Of a stretch of 64,000 nt of DNA, positions 59,106-59,473 are shown piece after piece. The DNA lies in the NCBI RefSeq assembly GCF_054482525.1, contig NZ_CM137006.1; one strand, written 5' to 3'. Below the pieces are notes generated by a model, which worked only from the letters and a program-made list of their open reading frames with translations, had not been told where the DNA came from and made no database searches. Made by a program: the position numbers and the translations under genes. Numbering within the stretch: position 1 is the first letter of the stretch; the number at the start of each line of letters is the position of its first letter.

Positions 59106-59279
59106 TTAAAACAGTGAAAACAACAGCGCCACCGGGAAACTCATCGGCCATGTTGCCCCCACCAGAAAGGCGCTTAAGAAACGGATGCGTTTCTTATCGT
59201 GAGAAAGAAACCAGGTGATAAGAAATGCGATTGCTGCCATAACCGCATAAAAAACAAGCATGTGTTGATAGAGAGACAT
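59106..59279 (-). CDS. ortT: small membrane toxin-like protein
   Basis: internal ATG of ORF 59106..59354 gives 57 aa MSLYQHMLVFYAVMAAIAFLITWFLSHDKKRIRFLSAFLVGATWPMSFPVALLFSLF. Confidence 0.7.
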   Translation of the reverse strand: MSLYQHMLVFYAVMAAIAFLITWFLSHDKKRIRFLSAFLVGATWPMSFPVALLFSLF

Positions 59280-59473
59280 GTACGGGCGTCCAGCCAGATG
59301 AATAAAACGCGCGCAAATATGCGTCATTTTTTGACGTGCATCAAGTTTTTTCACCAGTTTGAGAAAAAATCATCAAACAGCAACTTGCCCTTATCCATCT
59401 TCAGAATGAGTATTATTGCGGATTTTCTTAACCCGTACTATACACATAGGGGCAATGATAAAAGGTGGCAAAA

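Follow-up and report, generated by a model that had tools for sequence, protein, structure and literature searches.

The open frame upstream of the orphan toxin gene ortT very probably represents promoter and leader DNA

The gene for OrtT, a small hydrophobic membrane toxin of the GhoT/OrtT family, raises the question of where its protein product begins. In the stretch of DNA analysed here (64,000 nt, hereafter referred to as the window), an ORF scan delimits a minus-strand frame of 82 codons at 59106..59354, which opens with a GTG and reads MKKLDARQKMTHICARFIHLAGRPY, followed by MSLYQHMLVFYAV...SLF, whereas the annotated protein has 57 residues and starts at the ATG at 59279. The initial annotation had drawn attention to the resulting 25-codon extension, and we confirm both its coordinates and its codon count. 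Its basic character is equally evident, with six Lys/Arg residues against a single Asp/Glu, in addition to two His residues. The proposal that a toxin with this basic N-terminal extension might be produced, by contrast, did not hold up, with the position of the transcript start, the comparison with related species, the pattern of substitutions and the Shine-Dalgarno analysis all arguing against it. Instead, the 25 upstream codons very probably constitute the promoter and leader of ortT and are non-coding, with the product being the annotated 57-residue peptide made from ATG 59279.

Identity of the gene and extent of the upstream open frame

The gene and its surroundings comprise the following features:

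58787..59020, minus strand: ydcY, the downstream neighbour of ortT, encoding a 77-aa DUF2526 protein (Pfam PF10735) and equipped with its own promoters
59106..59279, minus strand: ortT (ydcX, b1445), coding sequence for 57 aa plus stop, starting with MSLYQ (RefSeq annotation, Pfam PF10753)
59280..59354, minus strand: in-frame 25-codon 'extension', very probably non-coding and composed of promoter and 5'UTR
59325..59327, minus strand: internal in-frame ATG opening a 73-aa product, very probably a non-functional start
59352..59354, minus strand: GTG opening the 82-aa ORF, 25 codons upstream of MSLYQ, very probably a non-functional start
59474..59569, plus strand: yncL, the divergent neighbour of ortT, encoding a 31-aa stress-response membrane protein (NCBIfam NF000537, 72.5 bits)

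Over 891 nt around the ortT locus, the window is 100% identical to the genome of E. coli PCN033, for which RefSeq gives the gene order mcbR, curA, mnaT, ydcZ, ydcY, ortT, yncL, patD and an ortT gene of 174 nt (57 aa) that corresponds to window positions 59106..59279. The same arrangement is found in K-12 MG1655, whose b1445 is annotated as 'orphan toxin OrtT' with 57 aa. In the segment that begins 200 nt ahead of the ATG and closes with ortT itself, the K-12 sequence matches the window at 381 of 381 positions, and sequence identity and conserved neighbourhood together establish orthology with b1445. Neither in its DNA, its context (patD, yncL, ortT, ydcY, ydcZ, mnaT, curA) nor the length of its product does K-12 OrtT (YdcX) differ from the gene studied here. 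Since the two loci agree base for base, experiments performed in K-12 transfer directly. The locus is moreover near-universal in the species: of 5426 complete E. coli genomes, 5415 carry it. The accession of the K-12 b1445 protein, NP_415962.2 (NC_000913.3), denotes a second version, which suggests a past revision of the record.

When searched against the 82-aa ORF, the Pfam family PF10753 (Toxin_GhoT_OrtT) produced a match of 95.5 bits (gathering cut-off 22.1), in which the entire profile (positions 1-55 of 55) is covered by residues 29-82, equivalent to residues 4-57 of the annotated protein. This match, together with the identity to K-12, bears out the earlier designation of ortT as a gene for a toxin-like membrane protein. 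Its confinement to residues 29-82 indicates that the family begins at the annotated start.

The mere existence of the open frame carries little information. When the 300 nt preceding the gene were shuffled 20,000 times, 7% of the resulting sequences contained an in-frame start 25 or more codons upstream, and 13% stayed open for 30 codons or more. Similarly, among the 81 ortT loci of our comparison set (see below), the open stretch upstream of the ATG had a mean length of 19.2 codons in frame, versus 19.7 and 14.0 codons in the other two frames. The 25-codon open extension is thus no more than expected by chance.

Transcription and translation start sites

The most direct evidence on the use of the upstream codons comes from published start-site mapping. 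Using a modified 5'RACE-seq protocol, Kim et al. identified a single ydcX start, at position 1515384 of NC_000913.2, with 37 reads and a 5'UTR of 29 nt, and gave ACTGGTGAAAAAACTTGATGCACGTCAAAAAATGACGCATATTTGCGCGCG as its upstream sequence, with the last G representing the start (Kim et al., 2012; PMC3415461). Position 1515384 maps to window position 59308, 29 nt before the ATG. Cho et al. (2014; PMC3923258), who covered exponential, stationary, heat-shock and G conditions, likewise recorded it as the only ydcX start, although these data come from one laboratory and one method, with the start being detected in the exponential aerobic sample only (PMC3415461, PMC3923258). Relative to this start, GTG 59354 lies 46 nt upstream and ATG 59327 lies 19 nt upstream, the latter between the FNR box/-35 region and the -10 region. 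With transcription starting downstream of both codons, each of them is outside the mRNA and cannot start translation. A transcript start downstream of the upstream start codon was precisely what the initial annotation had set against its proposal, and this is the situation in K-12. Other start-site collections did not add to this picture: the Cappable-seq and SMRT-Cappable-seq supplements contain no start coordinates near the locus, ortT is not mentioned in the Shigella M90T start-site supplements, and for KPN_01921, the K. pneumoniae orthologue, no start was found in the accessible part of the tables of Kim et al. (2012).

The DNA preceding the mapped start can be read as a promoter with the following elements:

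59344-59339, minus strand: -35 hexamer TTGATG, coinciding with the left half of the FNR box; assigned from spacing and conservation
59331..59344, minus strand: FNR box TTGATGCACGTCAA, a 9/10 match to TTGAT-N4-ATCAA whose left half is the -35 element
59338-59322, minus strand: 17-nt spacer between -35 and -10
59321-59316, minus strand: -10 hexamer CATATT, assigned from spacing and conservation
59315-59309, minus strand: conserved GC-rich discriminator TGCGCGC
59308..59322, minus strand: block GCATATTTGCGCGCG, comprising -10, discriminator and start G, 80-99% conserved over 81 loci
59308, minus strand: transcription start G (published 5'RACE-seq)
59280..59308, minus strand: 5'UTR GUUUUAUUCAUCUGGCUGGACGCCCGUAC, 29 nt (length from start mapping), with a weak Shine-Dalgarno sequence (GGA)

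According to this reading, RNA polymerase would use TTGATG (59344-59339) and, after a 17-nt spacer, CATATT (59321-59316) to begin transcription at the mapped start, G 59308, giving rise to a 29-nt leader with a weak ribosome-binding site. The FNR box (59344-59331) would overlap the -35 hexamer, and the absence of in-frame stops from the 75 nt upstream of the gene would be happenstance. A generic promoter scan had missed this promoter, as TTGATG-17-CATATT scores 8/12 at a threshold of 9/12. Based on ChIP, the ydcX promoter has been assigned to sigma70, sigmaS and sigma32 ('DSH'; PMC3923258), and a SELEX peak for the RpoS holoenzyme falls within the yncL/ydcX spacer (Shimada et al., 2017; PMC5493296). 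A sigma32-type reading, CTTGATG-N14-ACGCATAT, also fits the start at 59308 and agrees with the 'DSH' assignment; it was not adopted. For the sigmaE promoter predicted previously (PMC4344625), inspection of the sequence revealed an AAACTT element with no TCAAA at the required 16-nt spacing, and this candidate was not adopted either.

At promoters that ppGpp and DksA inhibit, a GC-rich discriminator is a typical feature. The conserved TGCGCGC at 59309-59315 was not to be expected in front of a gene whose induction during the stringent response has been reported (PMC4344625).

Ribosome binding points in the same direction as transcription. The best anti-Shine-Dalgarno duplex amounts to +0.6 kcal/mol for GTG 59354 and ATG 59327 alike, versus -3.3 kcal/mol for the annotated ATG, so that duplex computation finds no Shine-Dalgarno sequence at either of the upstream starts. 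The one at the annotated ATG is itself weak, at about the median for random 20-mers. The 57-aa ORF is toxic, and an ATG-to-ACG exchange of its start codon abolishes the toxicity (Islam et al., 2015; PMC4344625). A full-text literature search found no paper combining ortT with ribosome profiling.

These considerations matter mainly for annotation. Public OrtT-family entries differ in length, with 57 aa given for RefSeq E. coli and many Salmonella and Citrobacter entries, 73 aa for Shigella flexneri and E. albertii, 77-78 and 87 aa for Salmonella, and 82, 88 or 97 aa in the output of GenBank and metagenome gene callers. The longer OrtT-family calls translate promoter DNA, and the practical value of our analysis thus lies in explaining the inconsistent N-termini of the family, while its biological weight is small. 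Some E. coli OrtT variants also have altered or extended C-termini (63, 64 and 77 aa), which look like the result of frameshifts or stop loss.

Conservation of the upstream region and alternative products

A scan of one genome per species yielded 80 ortT loci, and the comparison set comprised 81 loci from about 20 genera of the Enterobacteriaceae, with Escherichia, Salmonella, Citrobacter, Enterobacter, Lelliottia, Leclercia, Kosakonia, Phytobacter, Cedecea and Pantoea among the genera scanned. The 57-aa core is conserved in all 81 loci, whereas the upstream frame is not. The distance from a conserved GCATA motif to the ATG varies between 39 and 45 nt, with 38, 21 and 22 loci falling into the three residue classes modulo 3. 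Translation of the same conserved DNA consequently gives THICARF for Escherichia and Enterobacter. For Salmonella, for Kosakonia and for many Citrobacter it gives RAYCARF, and further members of Citrobacter and Enterobacter have SILRAF or RILRAV. Within 25 codons upstream of the ATG, 65 of the 81 loci contain an in-frame stop, which in eight of them directly precedes the ATG.

What is conserved upstream of ortT is DNA rather than a reading frame. An alignment of 140 nt and a block-anchored profile revealed two strongly conserved blocks, AAAACTTGAT-N4-ATCAA and GCATATTGCGCGCG. The distance from the start of the FNR box to the -10 block is exactly 22 nt in 79 of the 81 loci, and conservation falls to about 50% past the second block, after the equivalent of the transcription start. 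The fixed spacing of the blocks and the drop in conservation beyond the second one identify a promoter rather than a protein-coding stretch. Both elements, the FNR box and the GCATATTGCGCGCG block, extend to Pantoea (loci L081 and L082); in another Pantoea strain, ydcX has been described as plasmid-borne (PMC11467524).

Substitutions within the genus lead to the same conclusion. Seven Escherichia sequences, which contain no indels in this region, were compared by codon position:

Extension, 75 nt: 33 variable sites, distributed 14/10/9 over codon positions 1/2/3, mostly non-synonymous
Core, 171 nt: 62 variable sites, distributed 13/9/40, mostly synonymous

A coding-type pattern, with an excess of third-position changes and more synonymous than non-synonymous substitutions, is thus not seen in the extension. 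Its start codons are no better preserved. The GTG is present in only two of the seven sequences, those of the window and one other E. coli strain. E. coli E69 carries GAC-TGA at this site, and hence an in-frame stop in the next codon, and the remaining Escherichia (Escherichia sp., E. whittamii and E. albertii) have GCT, GTT or GGT. The internal ATG 59327 is replaced by ATA in Escherichia sp. E1V33 and E. whittamii. Neither the frame nor the start codon of the extension is therefore conserved in relatives.

Three alternative products of the upstream region have to be weighed against this evidence. It is conceivable that a lineage-specific 82-aa isoform, providing the toxin with a basic tail, is made from GTG 59354 on a transcript that originates from a stress-specific upstream start or by read-through from patD. 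The open frame and its GTG do exist, some GenBank and metagenome callers give products of 82-97 aa, and a terminator scan found no canonical terminator between patD and ortT, where the hairpin at 59592-59626 is devoid of a T-run. However, no upstream transcription start was recorded over the four conditions investigated (PMC3923258), the GTG lacks a Shine-Dalgarno sequence (+0.6 kcal/mol), and it is missing in E. coli E69, which has the in-frame TGA, and in Escherichia sp., E. whittamii and E. albertii. Moreover, the substitution pattern is non-coding, the codons in question coincide with an FNR box found occupied by ChIP, and an extension of this size is expected by chance in about 7% of cases per gene, which makes such an isoform highly improbable. 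More generally, with no Shine-Dalgarno sequence and no conservation even within Escherichia, a functional extension is very unlikely. We regard it as just as improbable that translation truly starts at ATG 59327, producing a 73-aa protein. This codon is an ATG in E. coli, E. albertii, Enterobacter, Lelliottia and Leclercia, where the product would begin with MTHI, and RefSeq contains 73-aa 'GhoT/OrtT family toxin' entries. Yet, it lies 19 nt upstream of the mapped start, between -35 and -10, it has no Shine-Dalgarno sequence, and it is ATA in two Escherichia species, while Salmonella, Citrobacter and Kosakonia read the same DNA in other frames or with stops. Its recurrence is accounted for by the conserved promoter sequence AAAATGACGCATA of which it is part.

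The least probable alternative, to which we attach almost no weight, is that the upstream frame represents a separate regulatory leader peptide or an antitoxin-like element. Small toxin genes are indeed often controlled by upstream leaders or antisense RNAs. However, the region lies outside the mapped mRNA, has no Rfam match and shows no coding conservation, and both a test of the cloned upstream and downstream intergenic RNA and a library screen were negative (PMC4344625). The upstream codons are very probably ortT promoter and leader DNA with a published FNR site, so that the accepted 57-residue OrtT stands. Published work already covers ortT itself, the length of its product (57 aa), the orphan status of the toxin, the mapped start of transcription and the promoter's FNR site. 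Tool results or published data directly show which gene this is, where its transcription begins, that FNR occupies its promoter and that the upstream codons are not conserved in the manner of coding sequence.

FNR binding, orphan status and flanking genes

The FNR box within the putative extension is a known binding site. FNR binding at ydcX was detected by ChIP-chip, with AAAACTTGATGCACGTCAAAAAAT as the proposed site (Grainger et al., 2007; PMC1802558). Subsequent ChIP-seq and ChIP-chip work placed an FNR peak at 1515350 and the site TTGATGCACGTCAA from 1515348 onwards, in NC_000913.2 coordinates (Myers et al., 2013; PMC3688515, Tables S5/S6). Position 1515348 corresponds to window position 59344, and the bound site thus covers codons 4-8 of the putative extension. 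The box matches the consensus at 8/10 positions or better in all 81 loci and at 10/10 positions in 39 of them.

Relative to the mapped transcription start, we calculate that the box is centred at -29.5. FNR boxes mediating class II activation are typically centred at -41.5. The ortT box differs from them in its position, and class II activation would need a start near 59296, with TTTTAT as a poor -10 element; no such start is on record, and this arrangement was set aside as a possibility only. Judging from its position, FNR at -29.5 would most likely occlude the promoter, leading to repression when FNR is active. For cells grown anaerobically in glucose minimal medium, Myers et al. (2013; PMC3688515, Table S9, categories 3-5) list the yncL/ydcX peak among the FNR-bound sites at which expression showed no FNR-dependent change. 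It is tempting to speculate that the overlap of the FNR box with the -35 element places the orphan toxin gene under oxygen control, an idea that we put forward tentatively and consider somewhat less probable than its opposite. If it were true, FNR would take the place of an antitoxin, shutting the promoter off or switching the start site under anaerobiosis.

The lack of an obvious antitoxin partner, as stated in the initial annotation, is the very property by which OrtT has been defined as an orphan toxin (Islam et al., 2015; PMC4344625). The K-12 protein, which is identical, is toxic through membrane damage, and its toxicity was relieved neither by co-expression of YdcY nor by GhoS or flanking intergenic RNA, with a genomic library likewise yielding no antitoxin (PMC4344625). 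An Rfam scan of positions 58600-59900 at a permissive E-value gave no match. OrtT resembles its paralogue GhoT, the toxin component of the type V system GhoT/GhoS, which also belongs to PF10753, has 57 aa, begins at the position of the annotated OrtT start, shares 63% identity and damages membranes (PMC4344625). GhoT, however, is paired with an antitoxin, GhoS, that cleaves its mRNA. This antitoxin does not neutralise OrtT, for which there is no partner gene (PMC4344625).

Several minor observations concern the flanking genes. The yncL transcription start (1515241) corresponds to window position 59451. For ydcY, Cho et al. (2014; PMC3923258) found the strongest start at 1515672, with 284 reads, under stationary, G and heat-shock conditions. 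This position is the A of the ydcY ATG (window 59020, minus strand), downstream of an AAGGAG Shine-Dalgarno sequence, and it would mark either the 5' end of a leaderless mRNA or a site of processing. Of two weaker ydcY starts, at window positions 59056 and 59045, the former fits a promoter, TTGACG-16-TATCAT, that the scan called between ortT and ydcY, at 59090-59063. A perfect 13-bp inverted repeat extends over 59592-59626, where patD (minus strand) and yncL (plus strand) face each other with their 3' ends, and consists of CGTACTGTCAGAG, a 9-nt loop and CTCTGACAGTACG. It has no T-run on either side and was not called by the terminator scan. The hairpin may act as a bidirectional terminator or stabilise RNA.
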